Of a stretch of 46,861 nt of DNA, positions 29,682 to 40,805 are shown in pieces (the first letter of the stretch is position 1; every line of letters begins with the position of its first letter). The translations under genes and the position numbers were made by a program. Under the pieces are notes generated by a model. It was given only the letters and a program-made list of their open reading frames with translations, did no database searches and was not told the DNA's origin. Location: NCBI GenBank assembly GCA_020723435.1, contig DYIV01000005.1, forward strand, positions 1 to 46,861. Reading direction: 5' to 3'. This stretch comes from Slackia heliotrinireducens (GTDB lineage Bacteria > Actinomycetota > Aquicultoria > DYIV01).

Positions 29682-30407
29682 GTGGTCATGAGCGAAGGGT
29701 ATCCCCACACCGTGCGGCAAAGCTCCCGCGCCAAGCGAGCGCGACTCACCGTATCTCCGCGTCAGGGACTCGTCGTGGTGATCCCGACGGGATACGACCG
29801 CAGCCGGGTGCCGGCCCTCATCGAAGGGAAGAGAGCCTGGCTGGACAAGACTTTTCGCACGATCGAGGCGCAACGCGACTCGATCGAAGACGAATGCTGC
29901 GGGGGTCTGCCGCGCATCCTTCGGCTGCGCAGCATTGGCGAGGAGTGGTCCGTCGACCACGAGCCGGGGGATTCGGACCGGCTGACCCTGCGCGAGACGG
30001 ACGGCGCCAGGCTCGTCATCACCGGAGACACCTCGGACGTCACGGTCTCCCACGAGGTCCTGGCCCGGTGGCTGAAGCGCAAGGCGCGACATCACCTCGG
30101 GCCGTGGCTACGAGACGTCGCGGACGAATGTGGCTTTGCCGTGCGCGACATCTCCGTGCGGCTGCAGCGCACCAGGTGGGCCAGCTGCTCCAAGCACGGG
30201 CGCATCAACCTGAACGTCAAGCTGCTCTTCCTGCCCAGGGAGCTGACCGACCACGTCCTGCTCCACGAGTTGTGCCACACCGTGCACCTGAATCACTCCA
30301 AGGCCTTCTGGCGGCTTGTGAGCAAACATCAGCCGGACCACAAACAGAAGGACACGGAGTTGCGGGCGGCGTGGCGCTATGTGCCGGCTTGGCTCGACAC
30401 ACGATAG
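29682..30407 (+). CDS. YgjP/DUF45 (M48/WLM-like) zinc metallopeptidase-fold protein
   Basis: VLLHELCHTVHLNHSKAFW (HExxH...H) near the C-terminus and RWASCS..G.I.LN..L are the DUF45 hallmarks. GTG 29682 directly abuts the SPFH stop codon (TAGGTG). Alternative ATG 29688. Confidence 0.85.
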   Translation: MVMSEGYPHTVRQSSRAKRARLTVSPRQGLVVVIPTGYDRSRVPALIEGKRAWLDKTFRTIEAQRDSIEDECCGGLPRILRLRSIGEEWSVDHEPGDSDRLTLRETDGARLVITGDTSDVTVSHEVLARWLKRKARHHLGPWLRDVADECGFAVRDISVRLQRTRWASCSKHGRINLNVKLLFLPRELTDHVLLHELCHTVHLNHSKAFWRLVSKHQPDHKQKDTELRAAWRYVPAWLDTR

Positions 30408-30688: not shown

Positions 30689-31981
30689 ATGGTTGCGTGT
30701 GAGAGATCGCATTGCTTTCCGCGGCGGTCACCAGCCTATCCGCTGCTTGTTCGAAGTGATCAGGCGGTTCGCCTGCTCGCCCGCCTTGTTGGCACGTCAG
30801 CCGTTCTATCCGCTCTCATTCTCTGCGCGACTCCGGCGACCTCCCTCGCCTACACCCAGATCCTGGCCACCGGGTACAACGGCTACGGCGAGAGCAACGT
30901 GTCAAGTTGGCGATACATCGTGGAGGTGAGCGCGGGCAGTCTTCATACCGTGGGCCTCAAGGCGGACGGTACCGTCAGAGCGACGGGATACAACGGCGAC
31001 GGCCAGTGCAATGTCTCCGCGTGGAGAAACATCAAGCAGGTTTCCGCCGGATACAGCCACACCGTGGGCCTGCGACGTGACGGTACGGTCGCGGCGACAG
31101 GTGACAACGCTTTCGGACAGTGCGACGTCTCCACCTGGCGGAACATCAAGCAGGTGGCCGGCGGCGGCGCCCACACCGTGGGCCTGAAGTCAGATGGCAC
31201 CGCAGTAGCGACCGGAAGGCACTTCGAGAAACAGTGCGCCGTCGACGCCTGGACGCACATCACTCAGGTTGACGCGGACAACTACCACACCGTGGGTCTG
31301 GAATCGAGCGGAACCGTTGTGGCTGTGGGAGACGGCACGTACGGTCAGTGCAGCGTCTCGGGATGGCGAGGCATCTTGCAGGTGGACGCGGGCGCCGACT
31401 ACACGGTGGGCCTCGAATCGACGGGGACTGCTGCGGCTGTGGGAGACGCGAGATACGACCGATGCAACCTCTCCGGATGGCGAAACATCAAACAGGTGGC
31501 CGCTGGCGGCTCCCACACGGTGGGCTTGAAGTCAGGCGGCACTGTGGTGGCCGTCGGCTCGAACAACACCGGGCAGTGCAACGTCTCCGCATGGAGAGGT
31601 ATCCAACAGGTTGCCGCTGGGCCTGAGCGAACCCTGGGGATGAAGAAGCCCCAGGTGTACTTGTCGCGTCCCTGGACCTATCCGGCCTCGATAGGGCACG
31701 GCCGCGGCTTCTATATCTACGGCTTTCTGCGACCCTACCACTCCGGTTCGACGAGGATCTACTTCTACCGGCTCACTACTAGAAGGTGGCGTGGCCGGGT
31801 CTATCGAGGGTGGCGCTTGGTCGGGCGGCGCTACGCGCCCAACTACTGGCACAAAGGGAACACTCTGTACCGCCTGCCGTGCGCCCTGGCCTACGCCGGC
31901 TACTACCGCGTTCGAGCATATCATTCCGATGCCGGCCACTACCCGACTTGGAGCACCATGAGAACACTCCACGTGGAGTAG
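30689..31981 (+). CDS. Secreted RCC1-like seven-bladed beta-propeller protein with basic C-terminal module
   Basis: Hydrophobic signal region (TSAVLSALILCATPATSLA). Seven tandem 38-aa repeats of the form G.N..GQC.VS.WRNIKQV.AG..HTVGL..DGTV.A. The C-terminal ~110 aa are Arg/Tyr-rich. Confidence 0.85.
   Translation: MVACERSHCFPRRSPAYPLLVRSDQAVRLLARLVGTSAVLSALILCATPATSLAYTQILATGYNGYGESNVSSWRYIVEVSAGSLHTVGLKADGTVRATGYNGDGQCNVSAWRNIKQVSAGYSHTVGLRRDGTVAATGDNAFGQCDVSTWRNIKQVAGGGAHTVGLKSDGTAVATGRHFEKQCAVDAWTHITQVDADNYHTVGLESSGTVVAVGDGTYGQCSVSGWRGILQVDAGADYTVGLESTGTAAAVGDARYDRCNLSGWRNIKQVAAGGSHTVGLKSGGTVVAVGSNNTGQCNVSAWRGIQQVAAGPERTLGMKKPQVYLSRPWTYPASIGHGRGFYIYGFLRPYHSGSTRIYFYRLTTRRWRGRVYRGWRLVGRRYAPNYWHKGNTLYRLPCALAYAGYYRVRAYHSDAGHYPTWSTMRTLHVE
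30866..31648 (+). repeat. Seven tandem 114-nt coding repeats (RCC1-like blades)
   Basis: The period is 38 codons. Strings such as TGGCGnAACATCAAGCAGGT and CACACCGTGGGCCT recur at this period. Confidence 0.85.
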
Positions 31982-32205
31982 GCGGCATCCCACCAATCCG
32001 ACCAGGCACCACGGGCCGACCGGCTGCCCGCCGAGAACGCCGGTCAGGACTACGACTGGACCCTCAGAGGCTGCCCGAAGGAGATCTCCACGCTCCTTTC
32101 AACGCGAATACCGTAAGAATCCGTCCCTTCCCCCGACCTACCTATCGTAAGACCGTCACCAAGCATACCGCCGCATTGGCGGCGGAACAGAGGGGAGGAG
32201 GGGTG

Positions 32206-32475
32206 ATGATGTCGAGGACTCCAAACGCGATGAAGCTCATCGCAACGTGGACTGTCGTGCTCGCAATGGGTGCGTCCGCGCTCGCAACCTGCGCGGGGAT
32301 CATGCTCCAGACACGAGACCGCGACCGCGATCAGCTCAAAGACGGCAGCTGTCAGACTGCGAAGCTGCAGATTCGCGATCGAGATCGGCTGCGCGACGGC
32401 AGTTGTCAGACAGCGAAACTGCAGACTCGCGACCGTGACCGCGATCAGCTCAAGGACGGCAGCTGCAACGTCTAG
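32206..32475 (+). CDS. Small exported peptide with three Cys-containing charged repeats (function unknown)
   Basis: ATG 32206 follows AGGGGAGGAGGGG. Signal peptide MKLIATWTVVLAMGASALATCAG. Then LQTRDRDRDQLKDGSCQTAK / LQIRDRDRLRDGSCQTAK / LQTRDRDRDQLKDGSCNV. The repeats differ mostly by synonymous changes, which argues for a translated product. Confidence 0.6.
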   Translation: MMSRTPNAMKLIATWTVVLAMGASALATCAGIMLQTRDRDRDQLKDGSCQTAKLQIRDRDRLRDGSCQTAKLQTRDRDRDQLKDGSCNV

Positions 32476-32702
32476 CCACGCGAACGACATCCGCTTTCGC
32501 GGGCGCAACGCTGGACCGCTCAGGGCGGGACCCGGTCGCTGAGCCACTCGGCGATCGAGCCCCGCCCCGCGCCCGCGACCTCAACGGCTTCCTCCGCCTC
32601 CGTCCATGTCCCCACCCGCTCGACACCACACCTGCCACAGCGATTCCTACGAATCGAGTACGCCCGAATGTAGACTATTCGGGTCTGGCCAAAAGGACTA
32701 TC

Positions 32703-35225
32703 ATGATCTCTGAGCAGCGTACGCGCGACGGGGGAGTTGTGCAGGGCACACAGCACAAGGAGTCGCCGAGGCGTCCCGCGTGGGATCGCTACTTCGACCA
32801 GGTTGTTGGCGGCGTCGCCGACGGTATCATCATCGTCGACGAAAGCTGTCACATCCTGCACGCCAATGAGGCAGCCGAGCGACTGTTCGGCATGTCAAAG
32901 GCCCAGCTGATCGGAAGATGCTGTGACGACCCCGGCTGGAAGCTCTCCTCTCCCGATGGAACACCCCTCGCGGGCGAGCAGCTTTGTTGCTACCGAGCGC
33001 TGAAGATCGGCGAGACCTCGCGACACCTCGAGCAGACCATCACTCGACCGGACGGCAGCACGGTCACCGTGTTGGTCAGCGCATCGCCGTTGCGCGACGA
33101 TGAGCGCCGCATCACCGGAGCGATCAACTCCTACACCGACATCACCGAGCTCAAGCAAGCGGAGCAGGCCCTGCGACAAAAGGACGAGCACAACCGGTCT
33201 CTGCTGCGATTGTACGCGCTGCTTGGGCAGGCGAATTCTTACACGGCGATCGTCGAAGCGCTGCTGTCGGAGATACCGTCAGCGCTCGGGTATGAGAGCG
33301 TCTGGCTCCAGCTGGTCAGAGAGGACAGCGACGACCTGCTCCTGCTGGATGCGGGCGGCCCCGCCGAAGAGGCCGTGAAGAAGCTGCTCCAGATGGATGA
33401 GCGGCTTCGGCTGAGGGTGGGTGACGATGAGTTCCTCATCCTGCCGATGACCGACGATCCCTATCTCAAGACGGCCGTCGCGACTAAGGGCATCCACGTC
33501 GTGGAGGACGCACGCACCCATCCGCTGACCGACAAGAAGATTGTCGAGGCCATCGGCAACCGCACGATTGTCGCGGTCCCATTGGTGCTGGCGGATAGGA
33601 GGCTAGGCGTCTTCTCGGTGGGCACGTTCGGCGATGAAGGCGTCCGTCCGCCGAGCGAAACGCAGCTTGACTACCTCACCGCGCTCTCCAACCACGTGGC
33701 TGTGGCCGTTGACCGCGTCCGCTTCCTCGGTGAACGCCGCGCGGCCGAAGAGGCGTTGCGCGAGAGCGAAGCGTACAGCCACTCGCTGCTGCGACTGTAC
33801 GAGACGCTCGGACAGGCCAACTCCTATAGCGCGATCCTCCAAGCGCTCTTGGGCGAGCTGCCGAGAACGCTCGGCTATGGGAGCGCCGGTCTGCTGGTGC
33901 TGGACGAGGGCGGCACCAGGGCGCGGCTACTGGAGGCCAAGGGCTCGATTGAGAAGGCGGCCGATAGCATCTTGAAGCTGGGCGAGGAGTTCCGAGCACG
34001 GACGGAGGACGAACAGTTCTTGGTCCTTCCGATAGGCGATGATCCGTTTCTGAAAGAGATCGTCGAAGCGGCGCACATCGTTGTGGTCGAGGACGCACGG
34101 ACCGACCCTCGCACGAACAAGGAAATCGTGGCCGCCACCGAAAACCGCACGATCATCAACGTCCCCCTGATGCTGGCGGGCAAGAAGTTGGGCATCCTCA
34201 ACACAGGGACCTACGGCGACGATGAAGGGGTCAAGCCGCCGACCGAGCGTCAGCTCGAGTACCTGGCCGCCATGGCGAATCACGTCGCCGTCGCCATGGA
34301 CCGCGTCCGCTTCCTCGCCGAGCGGCGCAAGGCGGAAGCCGCCTTGCGCGAGAGCGAGAGCAGGCTCCGAGACATCATCGGCAATACGAACGCCATCATC
34401 TACTTGAAGGATCTGGACGGCCGCTTCCTTCTGGCAAACGACCAGTTCGCAAGGTTGTTCGGGACGAACGAACACGAGATTGTCGGCAAGACCGGCTACG
34501 ACGTCTTCCCCTCGACGGACATGGCGCTCGAGCTCGACGAACGCGAGCGGCACGTTCGGGAGACCGGGAAATGGTTTGGGAGGGACGAGACTATGCGAAC
34601 GCCGCTGGGCGAGCGCACCTACTCGTCCGTCATGTTCCCGCTCCGGGACTCATCGGGGGCGGTATACGCGGTCTGTGGAGTCTCGACCGACATCACCGAA
34701 GCCAGGCGCGCCCAGGAGGAGCTGCGCAAGAAGGATCGCGCGATCCGCCAGGCCTACGTCGACGTTATCGCGGCCGTTACCGGCAACAAGCTCATCTTGA
34801 TGACGTCCGAGGAGATCAAGGAGGCGCTGGGCGTGCTCGTGACGAAGCCCCGGCGCATCGGCTCTTACCGATCGCTGGCGCGGGCCAGGGCGGAGATCCG
34901 CACCGCCATCGCCTATCACTTCCCCGAGATCAGAGGGACGATGGACTTCATCGTCGGCGTCTGCGAAGGACTGACAAACGCCGTCAAGCACGGGGGAAGC
35001 GGGCGATACGAAGTGCGTCGCCGTAACTCCACGGCGCAGGTGGTCATCAGCGACAGGGGACCGGGAGTCGACTTCACCACGGTGCCCAAGGCCACGCTCG
35101 AGGCCGGATTCTCAACGCAGGGCACGTTGGGTGTAGGCTTCACAATCATGCTTGAGATGAGCGACCGCGTTCTGCTTTCAACCGAGCCCGGAGGGACGAC
35201 GCTTGTGTTGGAGTTGAGCAGCTAG
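32703..35225 (+). CDS. Cytoplasmic PAS-GAF-GAF-PAS sensor fused to an RsbW/SpoIIAB-type (HATPase_c_2) serine-kinase-like ATPase
   Basis: Two PAS domains (VADGIIIVDESCHILHANEAAERLFG...; NAIIYLKDLDGRFLLANDQFARLFG...). Two paralogous GAF domains, each introduced by LLRLY..LGQANSY.AI..ALL.E.P..LGY. The C-terminal GLTNAVKHGG..(N-box)...DRGPG..(G1)...GVGF (G2) has no preceding H-box/DHp. Confidence 0.85.
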   Translation: MISEQRTRDGGVVQGTQHKESPRRPAWDRYFDQVVGGVADGIIIVDESCHILHANEAAERLFGMSKAQLIGRCCDDPGWKLSSPDGTPLAGEQLCCYRALKIGETSRHLEQTITRPDGSTVTVLVSASPLRDDERRITGAINSYTDITELKQAEQALRQKDEHNRSLLRLYALLGQANSYTAIVEALLSEIPSALGYESVWLQLVREDSDDLLLLDAGGPAEEAVKKLLQMDERLRLRVGDDEFLILPMTDDPYLKTAVATKGIHVVEDARTHPLTDKKIVEAIGNRTIVAVPLVLADRRLGVFSVGTFGDEGVRPPSETQLDYLTALSNHVAVAVDRVRFLGERRAAEEALRESEAYSHSLLRLYETLGQANSYSAILQALLGELPRTLGYGSAGLLVLDEGGTRARLLEAKGSIEKAADSILKLGEEFRARTEDEQFLVLPIGDDPFLKEIVEAAHIVVVEDARTDPRTNKEIVAATENRTIINVPLMLAGKKLGILNTGTYGDDEGVKPPTERQLEYLAAMANHVAVAMDRVRFLAERRKAEAALRESESRLRDIIGNTNAIIYLKDLDGRFLLANDQFARLFGTNEHEIVGKTGYDVFPSTDMALELDERERHVRETGKWFGRDETMRTPLGERTYSSVMFPLRDSSGAVYAVCGVSTDITEARRAQEELRKKDRAIRQAYVDVIAAVTGNKLILMTSEEIKEALGVLVTKPRRIGSYRSLARARAEIRTAIAYHFPEIRGTMDFIVGVCEGLTNAVKHGGSGRYEVRRRNSTAQVVISDRGPGVDFTTVPKATLEAGFSTQGTLGVGFTIMLEMSDRVLLSTEPGGTTLVLELSS

Positions 35226-35486
35226 AAGCGTGCGGTTTCAGCGCACTCAGGCACAGACAGCAGAGCTCGGCGCTGTACACGTTGGTCGTCTTGCACCTTG
35301 GGCACGTCCTCATTTCCACACCTTCCTCACGTGAATAGCTGCCGACCTTAGGTGTATCGGCTTCGCGTCCTGGGAAATAAAGGAAAGACCGCGCCGCCTC
35401 AGGCTCGAGTCCTCCGGTGCAGGAGTTCGGCGTCCCCGGCGGAGAAGATAGTCGCCACCGGAATGGCGCACGATAGGAGGGCGGCC

Positions 35487-36227
35487 ATGAGACAACGGCG
35501 CTGGCAGATACTGCTCGGATCGGCTTTGGTTTTGCTGTCGGTCATGCTCTACGCGCTGCACTACGCCATCTTTCACGACGCCCATCACATCTTCATCTAT
35601 ATGCTCGGCGACCTCGCCTTCCTGCCGCTCGAGGTTCTGTTGGTGACCATGGTCATCCACGAGCTGCTCAATCAGCGTGAGAAGCGGGCGATGCTGGACA
35701 AGCTGAATATGATCATTGGCGCGTTCTACAGCGAGGTCGGCACGTCGCTGCTGGCGAGGGTCTCCAACGCCGACCCGGGACTCGATGCGATCAGGAAGGA
35801 TCTGCTGATCGCCACCGATTGGCCCGACACGGAGTTCTTGCGTGTTCGCGGCGAGCTCGGAGCCTATGACTACCGGATAGACTCCTCCAAGGTCGACCTC
35901 GTCTTTCTGCGCGACATGCTCGTGTCGAAGCGCGACTTCATGCTCCGCCTGCTGGAGAACCCGAACCTTCTGGAGCATGAATCATTCACCGAGCTGCTGT
36001 GGGCCGTCTTCCATCTGACCGAGGAGCTGGAGGCCCGCGACGACCTGACCGGGGTCGACGGGGTCGACAGAGAGCACCTGAGGGGCGACATCGAGCGGGC
36101 CTACGGGCTTCTGTCCCGCGAGTGGTTCTCATACATGAGGCATCTCAAGAACAGCTACCCTTACCTCTTCTCGCTCGCGCTGAGAACGAATCCATTCGAT
36201 CGCGAAGCCTCCGCGGTGGTTGTGTAG
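35487..36227 (+). CDS. Hypothetical 2-TM membrane protein with ~180-aa cytoplasmic helical domain
   Basis: ATG 35487 lies 8 nt after AGGAGG. The earlier part of track ORF 35352.. lacks a RBS. TM helices ILLGSALVLLSVMLYALHYAIF and LGDLAFLPLEVLLVTMVIH. I recognise no family. Confidence 0.55.
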   Translation: MRQRRWQILLGSALVLLSVMLYALHYAIFHDAHHIFIYMLGDLAFLPLEVLLVTMVIHELLNQREKRAMLDKLNMIIGAFYSEVGTSLLARVSNADPGLDAIRKDLLIATDWPDTEFLRVRGELGAYDYRIDSSKVDLVFLRDMLVSKRDFMLRLLENPNLLEHESFTELLWAVFHLTEELEARDDLTGVDGVDREHLRGDIERAYGLLSREWFSYMRHLKNSYPYLFSLALRTNPFDREASAVVV

Positions 36228-36722: not shown

Positions 36723-37229
36723 CTAGGCTGCCCGCGCCGCCTTGTTGGCCTCCTCCTTGAGAACCTTGGCGTCAGCCTTGATCTCCTTCTTCATGGTCTT
36801 GGCCGCCCTGGACGTCAGCCGCTCCATGCCCCGCTCAATCGTGGGCTCGCCCACGAAGATGATGCCGGCCTCACCCTCATCGAGCATCTCGCCCAGCTCT
36901 CTGATGTCCCGGCGCGGCAGACCCACCGCAACGTGCGCCACGAGCGCGCCCAGACCCGCGCCGACGCCGGCCAGCAGCAGCATCGGGGGCCACAGCAGAC
37001 CAAAGAGCGCGCCGACGATGGCTCCCGCGGTCGCGTTGCGAGCGCGGATCGTCTCGTCTGTGTCGAGAATCTTGACCCTGCCCCCCTCCTCTTTCTCAAA
37101 CAGAGCCGCTTCGTAATGGCCGATGAACTTCTCCTTATGTAGAGTCTTGATGTCGTGGAAGTCCTCCTGCGCCGTCTCGAGATTCGCGTACTGAGCTCCC
37201 AAGACGACAAAACCCTCTCCTTCTGCCAT
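36723..37229 (-). CDS. DUF1269-like membrane protein
   Basis: ATG 37229 follows AGGAGG. The layout is a soluble beta-alpha N-domain (FVVLGAQYANLETAQEDF..IK.L), a Gly-rich TM pair (GAIVGALFGLLWPPMLLLAGVGAGLGALVAHV) and a second soluble domain. This matches the DUF1269 layout. Confidence 0.65.
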   Translation of the reverse strand: MAEGEGFVVLGAQYANLETAQEDFHDIKTLHKEKFIGHYEAALFEKEEGGRVKILDTDETIRARNATAGAIVGALFGLLWPPMLLLAGVGAGLGALVAHVAVGLPRRDIRELGEMLDEGEAGIIFVGEPTIERGMERLTSRAAKTMKKEIKADAKVLKEEANKAARAA

Positions 37230-37418
37230 GCTTCTTCTCCTCCTTCGCGTAGAACCACTCGTCCATCCGTGCCTCACGTGTGCCCCACAGCGTTCATGCC
37301 TAATCGGAGGGAGCAGAGATGGCGCCCCTTGAATCGACAAGCAACCTGCGCGGGTGCTAGCATCGAAGCATTCCTGTTGCGTGTCCGGTCGGAATCCGTC
37401 TCAGCGGGGAGGGATATC

Positions 37419-40400
37419 GTGGCGCGAGCGTTTGGGAAGTCCCCGGGGCGCTGGCTAGTCGTCATGGTCGCGTCTCTGTCGGCGATGGCCATGGTTGCCG
37501 GGTATGCGTGGGCCTACAAGCAGCCCGAACCCGGCCGCGGCACACGCGTTGCGCCGCGACTCGCCGCCGCGCCGAAGGCCCAGAAGCCGGCCGGCCGCCT
37601 CAACACCACGCTCGACCGGCTCGTCCGCCGCCGCGCCGCGGGCGGAACGGAATCCGCGCGTCTCTTCGCCCGAGAGCACGCGCTGGATGTCTCCGGCGAC
37701 ACCGTCGTCGTAGTCGTCGAGGCGGCCAAGGGAAAGAGCCCCGCAGCTCGCACGGCGATCAAGCACTCGGGCGCCGCCATCCTGCGCAGCTACGGCAATC
37801 TGATCAAGGCGCGCGCGCCAATCTCGAAGCTGGCGGCGCTTTCGGTCTCCGACGGCGTCAGCGCCGTCCGTCCTCCCATAAGGCCGGCGCCTGATATCAC
37901 CAGCGAAGGCGTGACCGAGACAGGGGCCGATCGGTGGCATGCCGTGGGAAACAACGGCGCCGGCGTCAAGGTGGGTATCATCGACGCCGGCTTCATCGGC
38001 TACCCGGCCATGCTCGGGACGGAGCTGCCCCCCAGCGTCACGACTTGGGGCGGAAGCGCCGGTGGAGATGAGAACGGGGGCTCCGAGCACGGCGCCGCCG
38101 TGGCCGAGGTCATACACGACGTTGCCCCCGGCGCGAGTCTCTATCTGGCTCGTATCGAAGACGACGTCGAACTCGGGTTGGCGAAGGATTGGATGAAAGC
38201 GCAGGGCGTCCAGGTCATCAATCACTCGATGGGCTGGTTCGGTACCGAAGGCGGCAACGGCTCGGGTCCCATCAACACAATCGTCAACGACGCGGTGGCA
38301 AACGGCATCTTCTGGGCCAACTCCGCCGGCAACGACCGGAGGCGCCACTGGATGGGCGACTTCACCGATACCGACATGAACAACTACATCAACTGGGACG
38401 GAACGGGCTGGGAGCTCAATACGTTCGGGGCCTACGAGGGCTGGCCGATAGTCGGGCACCTGTGGTGGAACGACTCTTGGACGAATGCTTCACAAGACTA
38501 CGATCTGTACCTGTATTGGTGGAACAGCGGCACCGAGGAGTGGGAAGAAGTCGATGGCTCTGCGAACGTTCAGGACGGATCGGCCGGCCGCACGCCTCAC
38601 GAGGCGATAGGCGTCTACGCCCCGGCGACGGGCATCTACGGCTGGGTAATCCACAGGTGGTCGGCCACCCAGACCAACGTCGACTTCGACCTCCACTCTT
38701 GGTATCAGGACCTCGACGAGCCGCTCAATCCAAACGGCCACTTCTTCGACCACGCGCGCAGCATCTCGGTGCCCGCCGACAACAACTCCAACGGATTCAT
38801 GGCCGCGGCGGCCATCGGCCGCGCAACCGGATACGCGCAAGAGGACTACAGCTCGGAGGGGCCGACCCGAGACGGCAGGACCGCTCCGGAGATCGCCGCT
38901 CCTTCGGACGTGCTCAATTCGGTGTACGGCACATTCCCCGGGACATCCTCATCGAGCCCTCATCTCGCCGGCGCGGTCGCCGTCATCAAGAGCGCGGCGA
39001 CCACCTGGACGGCGCAGGACATGGAGGCCCACTTCGAGGCCAACGCCGGCGATCTGGGCACGCCCGGCGCCGACAACCAGTTCGGCAGCGGCCGGTTGTA
39101 CATGTCTCCCACACCATTCACCCCGTCCGGCTCCATGGTCATCAACGGAGATGCGCCGTACGCAACCAGCGCCAACGTGACGGTGAATTCAGCGATAAGC
39201 GGGGCCAACTGGTTGCGTCTTCGCAACCTAGGCGGCGTCTGGAGCGGGTGGATGGGCTTCGCGTCGAGCAGCCCTTGGATGCTCAGCGCACAGGACGGCA
39301 CAAAGACCGTCGAAGCGGAGTATCGCAGCATCTTCGGTTTCTCGGCGACCTACCAGGACACGATCGTGCTCGATGCCACGCCGCCTTCGGGCACGATGTC
39401 TCTGAATGGCGGCGCCACGCATACGAACACGGCGGCCGTTGCCGTCAACTCCGCGGTGACCGGTGCGAGCGAGATGCGCTTCAGAGACTCCGGCGGCGCG
39501 TGGGACGGATGGGAGAGCTACAGCGCCGCCAAGTCGTGGGTGCTGCCGGGCGGCGACGGCACTAAGACGGTCGAGGCCGAATACCGGGACGCGGCGGGCA
39601 ATACGTCGCCGCTCTCCGACGACATCGTCCTCGATACCGCGGCCCCGATCGGAACGATGACGATCAACGACGATGAAGGCCACACGACAAGTCACGACGT
39701 GACGATCACGTCCTCGGTCGCGGGCGCCGATGAGATGCGGCTGAGGAACCCGGGGGGCGCCTGGAGCAGTTGGGGCTCCTACGCCGACGCGAAACCCTGG
39801 ACGCTGCCCGCTCCCGACGACACCAAGACGGTGGAGGCCCAGTATCGCGATCTCGCGGACAATACGCTGCCGCTCTCCGACACCATCCTGCTCGATTCGA
39901 CTTCGCCTTCCCCGCCGGGCGGTTTCAGCGCCACGCCCGGTGACGGCAGAGTCGACCTGGCCTGGACGCGGCCGCCCGAGCCCGACTTCGACGTTCTGAG
40001 GGTTCTGCGCTCCGACACGAGCTGGGCGACAAGCCCCACCGACACCGTCGGTCAGACGCTCGTCGTCGACGACACGTCCACGGTCGAGTCCTTCTTCGAC
40101 ATATCCGTCTCCAACGGAACGACCTACTTCTACAGCGCGTACTCACGCGATCAGCGGGGCAACTGGAGTGGTGGCGCGCATGCGTCCGCGCTGCCGCGTG
40201 CGCCCACGACAACCACCGCGACGACGTCGCGGGCGCTCGTGCTCTACGGCGACCCGGTCATCGTCTCGGCGACGCTCACCGACCCCGGCGGGCCGCTGGT
40301 CCTGATGCCGGGCATGGAGGTATGGGGTAGACCGCTGACGGGAGGAGCCTGGACCAAGCGGGCCGACGCGCCCTACGATCTTGTCACGTCGAGCTACCGG

Positions 40401-40805
40401 GCAGCGGTGCCCTGCACCCGCAACACGTACCTGAAGGCCAGATTCACCGGAAGCGCGCTGCATACGCCGAGCGAGTCCGCCGAGATGCTCGTTCGGTCTC
40501 GCGCCTGGCTCGGCCGTCCGTGGACGTACCCGCGCACGATCACCCACCAGCGCGCATTCTATATCTTCGGCTACGTCAAGCCACGCCACTCCGGCTATTC
40601 GAGGTTGTACTTCTACAGGAAAGTGGGCGGACAATGGCGCTTCTTGACGCAGCGACCGGCGAAGAACTACAACTACAAGACCTACAGTCGCTATCGGCTC
40701 AGGTATTGGGTACTCCGGCGGGGCTACTACTACGTGCGGGCCCTTCACTTCGATACGGACCACTACGGGACCTACGGCCCTGCGAGGGTCTTCTTCGTAA
40801 GATAG
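37419..40805 (+). CDS. Secreted subtilisin-like serine protease (S8) with three 87-aa repeats, FN3-like domain and two basic C-terminal modules
   Basis: GTG 37419 follows GGGGAGGGA (the 37155 start would overlap the divergent gene). Signal anchor WLVVMVASLSAMAMVAGYAWA. Catalytic triad GVKVGIIDAGF (D), SEHGAAVAEVI (H), GTSSSSPHLAGAVAV (S), and the oxyanion residue in NSAGND. A large insert lies between N and S. Confidence 0.85.
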   Translation: MARAFGKSPGRWLVVMVASLSAMAMVAGYAWAYKQPEPGRGTRVAPRLAAAPKAQKPAGRLNTTLDRLVRRRAAGGTESARLFAREHALDVSGDTVVVVVEAAKGKSPAARTAIKHSGAAILRSYGNLIKARAPISKLAALSVSDGVSAVRPPIRPAPDITSEGVTETGADRWHAVGNNGAGVKVGIIDAGFIGYPAMLGTELPPSVTTWGGSAGGDENGGSEHGAAVAEVIHDVAPGASLYLARIEDDVELGLAKDWMKAQGVQVINHSMGWFGTEGGNGSGPINTIVNDAVANGIFWANSAGNDRRRHWMGDFTDTDMNNYINWDGTGWELNTFGAYEGWPIVGHLWWNDSWTNASQDYDLYLYWWNSGTEEWEEVDGSANVQDGSAGRTPHEAIGVYAPATGIYGWVIHRWSATQTNVDFDLHSWYQDLDEPLNPNGHFFDHARSISVPADNNSNGFMAAAAIGRATGYAQEDYSSEGPTRDGRTAPEIAAPSDVLNSVYGTFPGTSSSSPHLAGAVAVIKSAATTWTAQDMEAHFEANAGDLGTPGADNQFGSGRLYMSPTPFTPSGSMVINGDAPYATSANVTVNSAISGANWLRLRNLGGVWSGWMGFASSSPWMLSAQDGTKTVEAEYRSIFGFSATYQDTIVLDATPPSGTMSLNGGATHTNTAAVAVNSAVTGASEMRFRDSGGAWDGWESYSAAKSWVLPGGDGTKTVEAEYRDAAGNTSPLSDDIVLDTAAPIGTMTINDDEGHTTSHDVTITSSVAGADEMRLRNPGGAWSSWGSYADAKPWTLPAPDDTKTVEAQYRDLADNTLPLSDTILLDSTSPSPPGGFSATPGDGRVDLAWTRPPEPDFDVLRVLRSDTSWATSPTDTVGQTLVVDDTSTVESFFDISVSNGTTYFYSAYSRDQRGNWSGGAHASALPRAPTTTTATTSRALVLYGDPVIVSATLTDPGGPLVLMPGMEVWGRPLTGGAWTKRADAPYDLVTSSYRAAVPCTRNTYLKARFTGSALHTPSESAEMLVRSRAWLGRPWTYPRTITHQRAFYIFGYVKPRHSGYSRLYFYRKVGGQWRFLTQRPAKNYNYKTYSRYRLRYWVLRRGYYYVRALHFDTDHYGTYGPARVFFVR
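39123..39905 (+). repeat. Three tandem 261-nt coding repeats (87-aa beta-sandwich-like domains) inside the S8 gene
   Basis: The Met codons of SGSMVINGD / SGTMSLNGG / IGTMTINDD lie at 39135, 39396 and 39657, exactly 261 nt apart. Each unit ends DGTKTVEAEYRD..GN.S.LSD.I.LD...P. Confidence 0.85.

Follow-up and report, generated by a model that had tools for sequence, protein, structure and literature searches.

The window analysed here is the 46,861-nucleotide (nt) stretch of contig DYIV01000005.1, part of a 2.32-Mb, 94% complete genome (assembly GCA_020723435.1, below G000). On its forward strand, at 32206-32475, lies a small gene whose product, P0001, is an 89-amino-acid (aa) protein with three tandem units built around the motif L[KR]DGSC. 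We are highly confident, taking these points together, that the gene is real, that its product is exported, that it belongs to a family spread over bacteria and archaea and that its peptide is under selection. Judging from promoter motifs, it is probably controlled through a predicted promoter at 32112-32137 by an extracytoplasmic function (ECF) sigma factor fused to a zinc-finger anti-sigma domain (sigma-ZAS). As a tentative suggestion, the protein could be a sigma-induced buffer of free thiols, acting on metals or oxidants outside the cytoplasm.

The gene, its product and its family

Direct translation of 32206-32475 (+) gives a stop-free frame of 89 aa, with the following features.

32190-32203 (+), purine-rich Shine-Dalgarno region with core GGAGG at 32194-32198, read from the sequence
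32206-32475 (+), coding sequence of the exported cysteine-repeat protein P0001, stop codon included (family profile E 4.7e-23)
32206-32286 (+), predicted signal peptide, residues 1-27, with predicted cleavage after ASALA
32305-32364 (+), repeat unit 1, 20 aa, ending in LKDGSCQTAK (repeat search and codon comparison)
32365-32418 (+), repeat unit 2, 18 aa, ending in LRDGSCQTAK (same methods)
32419-32472 (+), repeat unit 3, 18 aa, ending in LKDGSCNV at the C-terminus (same methods)

An earlier reading, made from the sequence only (the sequence-only reading), had described a gene with a strong ribosome-binding site and an exported product, made of three near-identical units that differ largely at synonymous positions. 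All of this is borne out. The GGAGG core lies 7 nt before the ATG, and residues 1-27 show positive charges followed by a hydrophobic segment. Across the family, an N-terminal hydrophobic stretch is present in 154 of 163 proteins. The mature chain is predicted to have 62 aa and four cysteines.

The same reading had paired the signal peptide with a possible lipobox (LAT-C); the signal peptide stands and the lipobox is doubtful. The consensus that closes a lipoprotein signal peptide is [LVI][ASTVI][GAS]C. The residue preceding the cysteine is T in P0001 and A, M and I in its three closest homologues (LATC versus LAAC, LAMC and LAIC), and just one of these four sequences fits the consensus. ASALA is kept in the close homologues P0002-P0004, where the residue that follows it varies. 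Because the pre-cysteine residue changes while ASALA stays constant, and because remoter relatives have no cysteine at this place, cleavage by signal peptidase I after Ala27 appears more likely than lipoprotein processing.

The protein is built from three tandem LQxRDRDR(DQ)L[KR]DGSC units, with the sequences LQTRDRDRDQLKDGSCQTAK, LQIRDRDRLRDGSCQTAK and LQTRDRDRDQLKDGSCNV. In the DNA they form a single 54-nt repeat family in which identity to the first copy is 80% and 63%; Tandem Repeats Finder reported no array at the gene because the copies have diverged too far. Between units, the proportion of synonymous differences (pS) is 0.60-0.88 and that of non-synonymous differences (pN) 0.09-0.21. 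Units 1 and 3 share a 16-codon core that differs by six synonymous changes and no non-synonymous one (P ~1e-4 under neutrality). The frame is therefore coding and selection acts on the peptide, as the sequence-only reading had concluded and on which it had let its case depend.

Scans of P0001 against Pfam and NCBIfam gave chance-level matches and no model, in line with the earlier remark that the family was not a recognised one. A word-seeded search yielded 26 proteins at E<=0.01 out of 99 candidates. The family was then defined by the profile of alignment A2, and a full search over 1.84 billion representatives matched 467 representative clusters at E<=1e-3, 119 of them at E<=1e-10. P0001 itself is found by this profile at E 4.7e-23 with three units and thus has both attributes that define a member, a signal peptide and at least two units. 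The profile search that the sequence-only reading had proposed has in this way revealed a family with kept repeats in both bacteria and archaea.

Family proteins are short (median 110 aa, 163 proteins), and 133 of the 163 have two or three DG[ST]C motifs. In the consensus unit, L-[K/R]-D-G-S-C comes after alternating [D/T][R/Q/K] pairs, of which there are four or five, and a cysteine stands two residues on at 302 of 324 sites anchored by [LIVM][KRQH]DG. In 88 of 161 proteins the chain ends within three residues of the last motif, and spacers range from 17 to 71 residues. Composition is dominated by charged and polar residues (D 12%, R 10%, Q 8.5%), and some relatives bear acidic loops of the DGTGDGxPD type.

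Thirty-four loci came from genome collections and 61 from metagenome collections, which leaves 77 unique loci including the window. Going by the titles of the records, bacterial carriers are found in the Actinomycetes, Thermoleophilia, Chloroflexota, Desulfobacterota, Bacteroidota, Planctomycetota, Kiritimatiellia, Omnitrophota and Krumholzibacteria and in Desulfosporosinus, and archaeal ones are Methanosarcina, Methanolobus and Bathyarchaeia; Methanosarcina sp. and Carboxylicivirga linearis are represented by isolate genomes. The core motif is identical across Actinomycetota, Desulfobacterota, Bacteroidota, Methanosarcina and Bathyarchaeia. Distribution among genomes is patchy: the family occurs in none of 40 class-level relatives of G000, in two of 300 other genomes sampled from its phylum and in six of 31 genomes of the genus that holds the Methanosarcina sp. 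locus L014. A search for the motif strings in open-access full texts, a body that excludes subscription journals and supplements, returned unrelated papers and no description of the family.

Three observations lie at the margin of the family. The ESM Atlas offered unnamed clusters at scores of 0.79-0.81, which are leads at most. In Bacteroidota, the family proteins of L015, L017 and L018 have a C-terminal extension that looks LTXXQ-like by eye; this was set aside, as it has no Pfam match. Finally, a large secreted protein of 1168 aa, P0044, contains about 30 tandem HEKERSHLKDGS[T/I] units, which amount to the LKDGS core without cysteine.

Signalling neighbours, promoter and flanking features

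The neighbourhood of the family genes is rich in signal transduction. BLAST clustering of 292 neighbour open reading frames (ORFs) from 35 loci, with the top three clusters identified by Pfam, placed histidine kinases first (12 loci), followed by response regulators (8) and ECF sigma factors (7). Small hidden Markov models of these three domain types were built from the Pfam-identified matches and run on all ORFs of all loci. Such genes number 0.34 per kb in the 500 bp nearest the family gene, 0.11-0.13 per kb from there out to 2 kb and 0.006-0.04 per kb beyond, where the flanks serve as an internal control. When the count is limited to the 59 unique loci flanked by 4 kb or more, a gene of one of these three types lies at most 2 kb away in 30; of 31 nearest signalling genes, 24 share the strand of the family gene. 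The window is counted among the 29 loci without such a gene, as the histidine kinase model does not score the HATPase_c_2 gene that follows the small gene.

The signalling partners come in recurrent arrangements. In L008, L052, L071 and L098, the family gene lies beside an ECF sigma gene and a gene for a CBM48/AMPK1_CBM-type protein, which is probably the anti-sigma factor. In the Desulfobulbaceae-type loci L025, L030, L033 and L063, it adjoins a conserved cassette of a histidine kinase (sCache_3_2/HAMP) and a response regulator (LuxR-type), with a phosphonate-bd-type binding protein encoded just upstream in L025, L030 and L033.

In the actinobacterial loci most similar to the window, the partner is a fused sigma factor. 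The family gene comes first in L004, L007, L026, L039, L041 and L042, 56-244 nt ahead of a gene that joins sigma, zf-HC2 and a hydrophobic segment. G000 has its own version on another contig, C40 (locus L003, C40:1-2117), where a secreted paralogue of 235 aa with degenerate motifs such as RLRDGTC and ARDGHC (C40:1318-2025, minus strand) is followed by a fused ECF sigma/zf-HC2 gene cut by the contig end (C40:1-990). Its product has Sigma70_r2, r4_2 and zf-HC2 in one chain and is the orthologue of the fused sigma factors of the related loci, at 38% identity.

Upstream alignment links these loci with the small gene. The motif YGTAAG[AGT]-N15-CGAC is common to all eight actinobacterial loci compared: C40, the window and the six above, where it stands ahead of orthologous operons in related metagenome-assembled genomes. 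In the window it is part of the following arrangement.

32112-32137 (+), predicted bipartite ECF-type promoter: -35 element CGTAAGA at 32112-32118, 15-nt spacer, -10 element CGAC at 32134-32137
32146-32157 (+), further copy of CGTAAGA-CCGTC, placed 8 nt past the -10 element, where transcription is predicted to start or close by

Both strands of G000 contain three matches in total. One, at C40:2117(-), lies 91 nt before the C40 paralogue; another lies 90 nt before a GTG situated one codon 5' of the ATG of the small gene; the third, on contig C62, has no gene behind it. With other spacers (12-18 nt) there are 0-4 matches each. Because the genome-wide frequency of the motif is no higher than that of a reversed control, the evidence for a promoter lies in the position of the motif and not in its number. 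Two further sites occur on one contig of G043, the genome that holds L026: one is directly upstream of a second sigma-ZAS gene, and the other is 89 nt before the gene of a small secreted protein whose final part is a degenerate RDRDRDQYHDGS stretch. A scan for sigma-70 promoters at the locus of the small gene found nothing.

A two-block motif at such spacing ahead of the sigma gene itself has the look of an autoregulated ECF promoter. On account of this resemblance, we read the first CGTAAGA as a -35 element and the small gene as a putative satellite member of a very small regulon, whose promoter the C40 sigma factor would recognise. The sequence-only reading had noted two CGTAAGA(N)CCGTC direct repeats, which are present at 32112-32125 and 32146-32157, and had taken them as a hint of dedicated regulation. 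That hint has gained substance, and what is new is the assignment of the first repeat to the -35 element of a conserved bipartite ECF-type promoter motif, predicted at 8/8 loci. Since CGAC is missing at the 15-nt spacing, the second copy is not a full promoter. A second GTAAG located 7-8 nt past the -10 CGAC is seen in the window (32146-32152) and also in L039.

Two stem-loops flank the small gene.

32168-32185 (+), 7-bp GC hairpin with a 4-nt loop in the predicted 5' untranslated region (z -1.6 against shuffles, not significant)
32497-32578 (+), long GC-rich stem-loop in the gap that separates the small gene from the sensor gene; its 10-nt arms are 100% complementary

The upstream hairpin had been pointed out by the sequence-only reading; it is real, lies two bases further left than given there, and is unexceptional. 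Hairpins of similar size occur in the predicted untranslated regions of five of the eight promoter-bearing loci, none of them significant against shuffles. In one fold (z -1.3), a CCCTTCCCCC stretch paired with the ribosome-binding site. This pairing was dismissed because the stretch lies inside the promoter spacer, which the proposed promoter would not transcribe. The region 32470-32600 folds at -63.6 kcal/mol (z -3.3), and the downstream stem-loop may be a terminator without a T-run, a kind common in GC-rich genomes; a scan for consensus intrinsic terminators found none at the locus. A sub-threshold snoRNA match in Rfam (E 0.53) was dismissed.

The next gene downstream (32703-35225, +) encodes a PAS-GAF-GAF-PAS protein with an RsbW-type HATPase_c_2 domain (Pfam). 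As Pfam finds no HisKA in it and it has no membrane segment, it looks like a cytoplasmic sensor of the partner-switching type and not a classical histidine kinase. No link between this gene and the small gene was found. A search for RNA runs that contain the locus gave none; contigs from run X2, of a relative that is ~92-94% identical, span the junction from the end of the small gene to the sensor gene. RCC1-like and S8 protease genes, which also lie near the small gene in the window (30689-31981 and 37155-40805, respectively) and which the sequence-only reading had considered as possible constant neighbours, are not such neighbours: their homologues occur at none of 95 family loci. A trace of shared synteny between two Actinomycetota was seen in the Thermoleophilia locus L009, which has a family gene together with homologues of the YgjP-like gene of the window and of an unannotated 291-aa gene (44% identity), the regions concerned being 29682-30407 and 35352-36227 in the window and L009:9238-9978 and L009:160-2127.

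Proposed function and its alternatives

AlphaFold2 models P0001 with a mean predicted local distance difference test (pLDDT) score of 52.5 and forms just the helix of the signal peptide, at low confidence. In P0034, a fusion with a DUF2202 domain, the repeats stay below 50 and undocked and the ferritin-like domain exceeds 90. From these models, the repeat region is probably disordered. A search among longer proteins gave 16 matches in which the repeats are used as a module. They stand ahead of a DUF2202 domain in P0027 and P0034 (Pfam) and in P0047 (alignment), behind a DUF4382 domain in P0031, and at the outer C-terminus of the DUF5667 membrane proteins P0033 and P0035. The DUF2202 domain matches PDB 3q4o (MJ0754) at E 2.5e-36, and a passage in a preprint calls DUF2202 a ferritin-like protein. 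L019 has a DUF5667 gene behind an ECF sigma gene, where an anti-sigma factor is usually encoded.

Genes near the family gene give further hints on chemistry. The family gene adjoins a stand-alone DUF2202 gene in L040 and L047; its neighbour is of the Metal_resist (ZraP/Spy) type in L055 and thioredoxin-like in L065, and CDF or RND efflux genes are nearby in L016, L018 and L027. G000, at 94% completeness, gave no match to COX1, VKOR or DSBA, and controls were positive in aerobes including an actinobacterium. The exported cysteines are for this reason expected to be reduced, and free thiols are plausible. Of the chemistries that the sequence-only reading had considered, enzyme-made disulfide-linked multimers are thereby disfavoured, G000 having neither DsbA nor VKOR, and metal or thiol chemistry is still the best guess, if an unproven one.

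We propose the following mechanism. The small gene would be transcribed from the ECF-type promoter GTAAGA-N15-CGAC at 32113-32137, and the product would be exported by the Sec system as an intrinsically disordered chain of 62 aa with three family units. The same promoter type would drive the divergent paralogue and the ECF52-like fused sigma/zinc-finger anti-sigma gene on C40, and by virtue of this shared promoter the small gene would be a satellite output of that stress switch. In a host with no sign of aerobic respiration or of disulfide-forming enzymes, its four cysteines could stay reduced outside the cytoplasm. Flanked by aspartate, they would buffer the envelope, either by binding thiophilic metal ions or by being consumed by oxidants or electrophiles, so that the ligand would be a metal or an oxidant. 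Functionally, this would be akin to bufferins/oxazolins, SilE/PcoE and ZraP, with the cysteines left unmodified.

Several observations weigh against the thiol buffer. The motif is the sole ground on which the promoter was assigned. The metal-related neighbours are of kinds that are common in anaerobes. Histidine and methionine are not enriched (histidine has a median fraction of 0, with just 4 of 161 proteins above 5%), there is only one cysteine per ~18-28 residues, and a simple thiol sponge would leave the invariant leucine and the alternating charges unexplained. G000 has no DUF2202 gene. The adjacent sensors vary by phylum (fused sigma-ZAS, FecR, RsgI, HAMP or sCache kinases), and the adjacent signalling gene of the window encodes a cytoplasmic PAS-GAF protein with no evident link.

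Such sensors can also be made the centre of the explanation. The repeat protein could be an accessory or feedback modulator, comparable to CpxP, RseB or CseA, that binds the outer part of a membrane sensor (sigma-ZAS, anti-sigma or kinase) and whose cysteines sense redox state or metal. This reading overlaps with the thiol buffer; we consider it rather unlikely. It would account for the signalling genes close to the family gene at 30 of 59 loci, mostly with a shared strand (24 of 31 nearest genes), for the family gene at the head of sigma-ZAS operons (L004, L007, L026, L039, L041, L042 and C40 of G000) and for repeats that form the extracytoplasmic C-terminus of the DUF5667 anti-sigma-like proteins P0033 and P0035. 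However, the partner sensors are of unrelated types, which makes a single conserved interface difficult to imagine, the sigma-ZAS proteins have outer tails of low complexity that are rich in Ser, Gly and Thr, and the copy in the window is unlinked to any membrane sensor. Peptide-pheromone genes, too, often adjoin two-component systems, and the signalling neighbours at half of the loci would thus also suit a precursor cut into three 18-20-mers that act as signalling peptides or resemble RiPPs (peptides made by the ribosome and modified after translation). The tandem near-identical units and an AKLQ linker that recurs in the closest relatives fit this idea, which the sequence-only reading had raised, and Sec-exported RiPP precursors exist in the form of bufferins (PMC11626156). 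It has nevertheless become improbable. The Pfam domains of 327 neighbour ORFs reveal no recurrent maturase for RiPPs, and no protease or exporter that recurs (for metagenome loci, Pfam covered 145 of 170 ORFs, the 25 left out being short, several of them on short contigs), radical-SAM proteins are confined to L020 and L039, and S8 protease homologues are absent from all 95 loci. MNIO was found in none of 11 family-bearing genomes and DUF2063 was not found in G000. Moreover, the core motif stays constant from Actinomycetota to Methanosarcina and Bathyarchaeia, unlike fast-diverging pheromones, the spacers vary between 17 and 71 residues, and the repeats also serve as a domain of larger proteins.

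The composition of the chain permits a purely structural role as well, that of a charged polyampholyte, calcium-binding or cross-linked by disulfides, which would coat or stiffen the surface without specific ligand chemistry. High charge (D 12%, R 10%, Q 8.5%), the DGTGDGxPD-type acidic loops of some relatives and an EF-hand gene that adjoins the family gene in L093 speak for it. Still, we regard it as improbable: G000 has no DsbA or VKOR to make disulfides, calcium binding leaves the near-invariant single cysteine (302 of 324 sites) unexplained, and the tight coupling to stress regulators is better suited to an inducible effector. The thiol buffer is the reading we carry into the comparisons below.

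Comparison with known systems

If this interpretation is correct, a function and a regulator would be assigned to a sizeable unnamed family (467 representative clusters, from Actinomycetota to Methanosarcina), and a very small ECF regulon would have a secreted thiol peptide as its main product. The idea is directly testable, as each of its elements (promoter, sigma domain, 62-aa peptide) is specified and isolates carry family genes.

One resemblance in sequence is to DUF6799 (PF20606) of Bacteroidota. Its repeats include an RLRDG[E/S]C stretch much like the family motif (P0037, P0039 and P0042) and give weak profile matches (E 6.5e-5 to 7.7e-4). Its units, however, are ~60 aa long, have further conserved positions and look folded, and with a cut-off as loose as E<=10 P0001 still has no match to the Pfam model. 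Going by the similar stretch, the short unit may derive from DUF6799, or DUF6799 may be its relative in folded form.

ZraP/Spy/CpxP (Metal_resist) and SilE/PcoE are small, exported, non-catalytic binders under the control of stress regulators, and SilE/PcoE are disordered with repeated short metal-binding motifs. By analogy, P0001 would resemble them in being small, exported and stress-controlled and in having a binding role. It differs in that its proposed ligands are Cys and Asp and not Met and His, and it has no match to Metal_resist or LTXXQ at E<=10. In L055, the Metal_resist gene stands beside the family gene and not in its place.

The fused sigma factors recall ECF52. Passages of PMC5826349 describe ECF52 sigma factor SCO4117 as having an ECF domain, a zinc finger and a transmembrane region in one chain, and the proteins of C40, L004, L007 and L026, all from Actinomycetota, likewise combine Sigma70_r2, r4_2, zf-HC2 and a hydrophobic segment in a single polypeptide. 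In contrast to ECF52, their C-terminal tails are of low complexity and hold no carbohydrate-binding module. The predicted promoter motif also differs from the CSGYN-17-SRHA proposed for SCO4117, for which the available passages of that paper describe no small cysteine-repeat first gene.

The closest functional parallel is offered by bufferins/oxazolins. In the passages available from PMC11626156 and PMC12452194, these are Sec-exported cysteine peptides, some with EGKCG repeats, that bind copper after modification by MNIO with a DUF2063 partner; some clusters include genes for sigma and anti-sigma factors, and precursors are in many cases encoded away from the enzymes. As far as these passages go, the L[KR]DGSC proteins are alike in being small and Sec-exported, in having conserved or repeated one-cysteine motifs, in being partly predicted as unstructured, and in their sigma/anti-sigma link, their placement away from a cluster and their fusions with metal-related domains. 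They are unlike them in their motif, which is L[KR]DGSC and not EGKCG, DUF2282 or Buf_6/12Cys (P0001 has no DUF2282 match at E<=10), and in occurring also in archaea. Their hosts live mainly in anoxic habitats, where an O2-dependent maturase could presumably not work. MNIO (PF05114) was found neither in the 11 family-bearing genomes searched (G000 and ten others; a Caulobacter control was positive) nor among the neighbour ORFs, and G000, 94% complete, has no DUF2063 match. Because of the different motif and the absence of MNIO and DUF2063 from these genomes, the L[KR]DGSC protein is not a bufferin, though it may work like one.

If it does, this would suggest that metals or oxidants can be buffered by exported cysteines without the O2-dependent MNIO chemistry of bufferins. 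A broader scenario, which we regard as speculative and on present evidence unlikely, is that in the L[KR]DGSC proteins anoxic life has an ancient equivalent of the bufferins that needs no maturase. These proteins would be disordered, exported plain-cysteine chains that capture soft metals, sulfur species or oxidants, and in Actinomycetota they would be essentially the sole output of a one-component, membrane-tethered ECF sigma/zinc-finger switch. Aerobes, in turn, would have converted such a cysteine to thiooxazoles to keep the function in an oxidising envelope.

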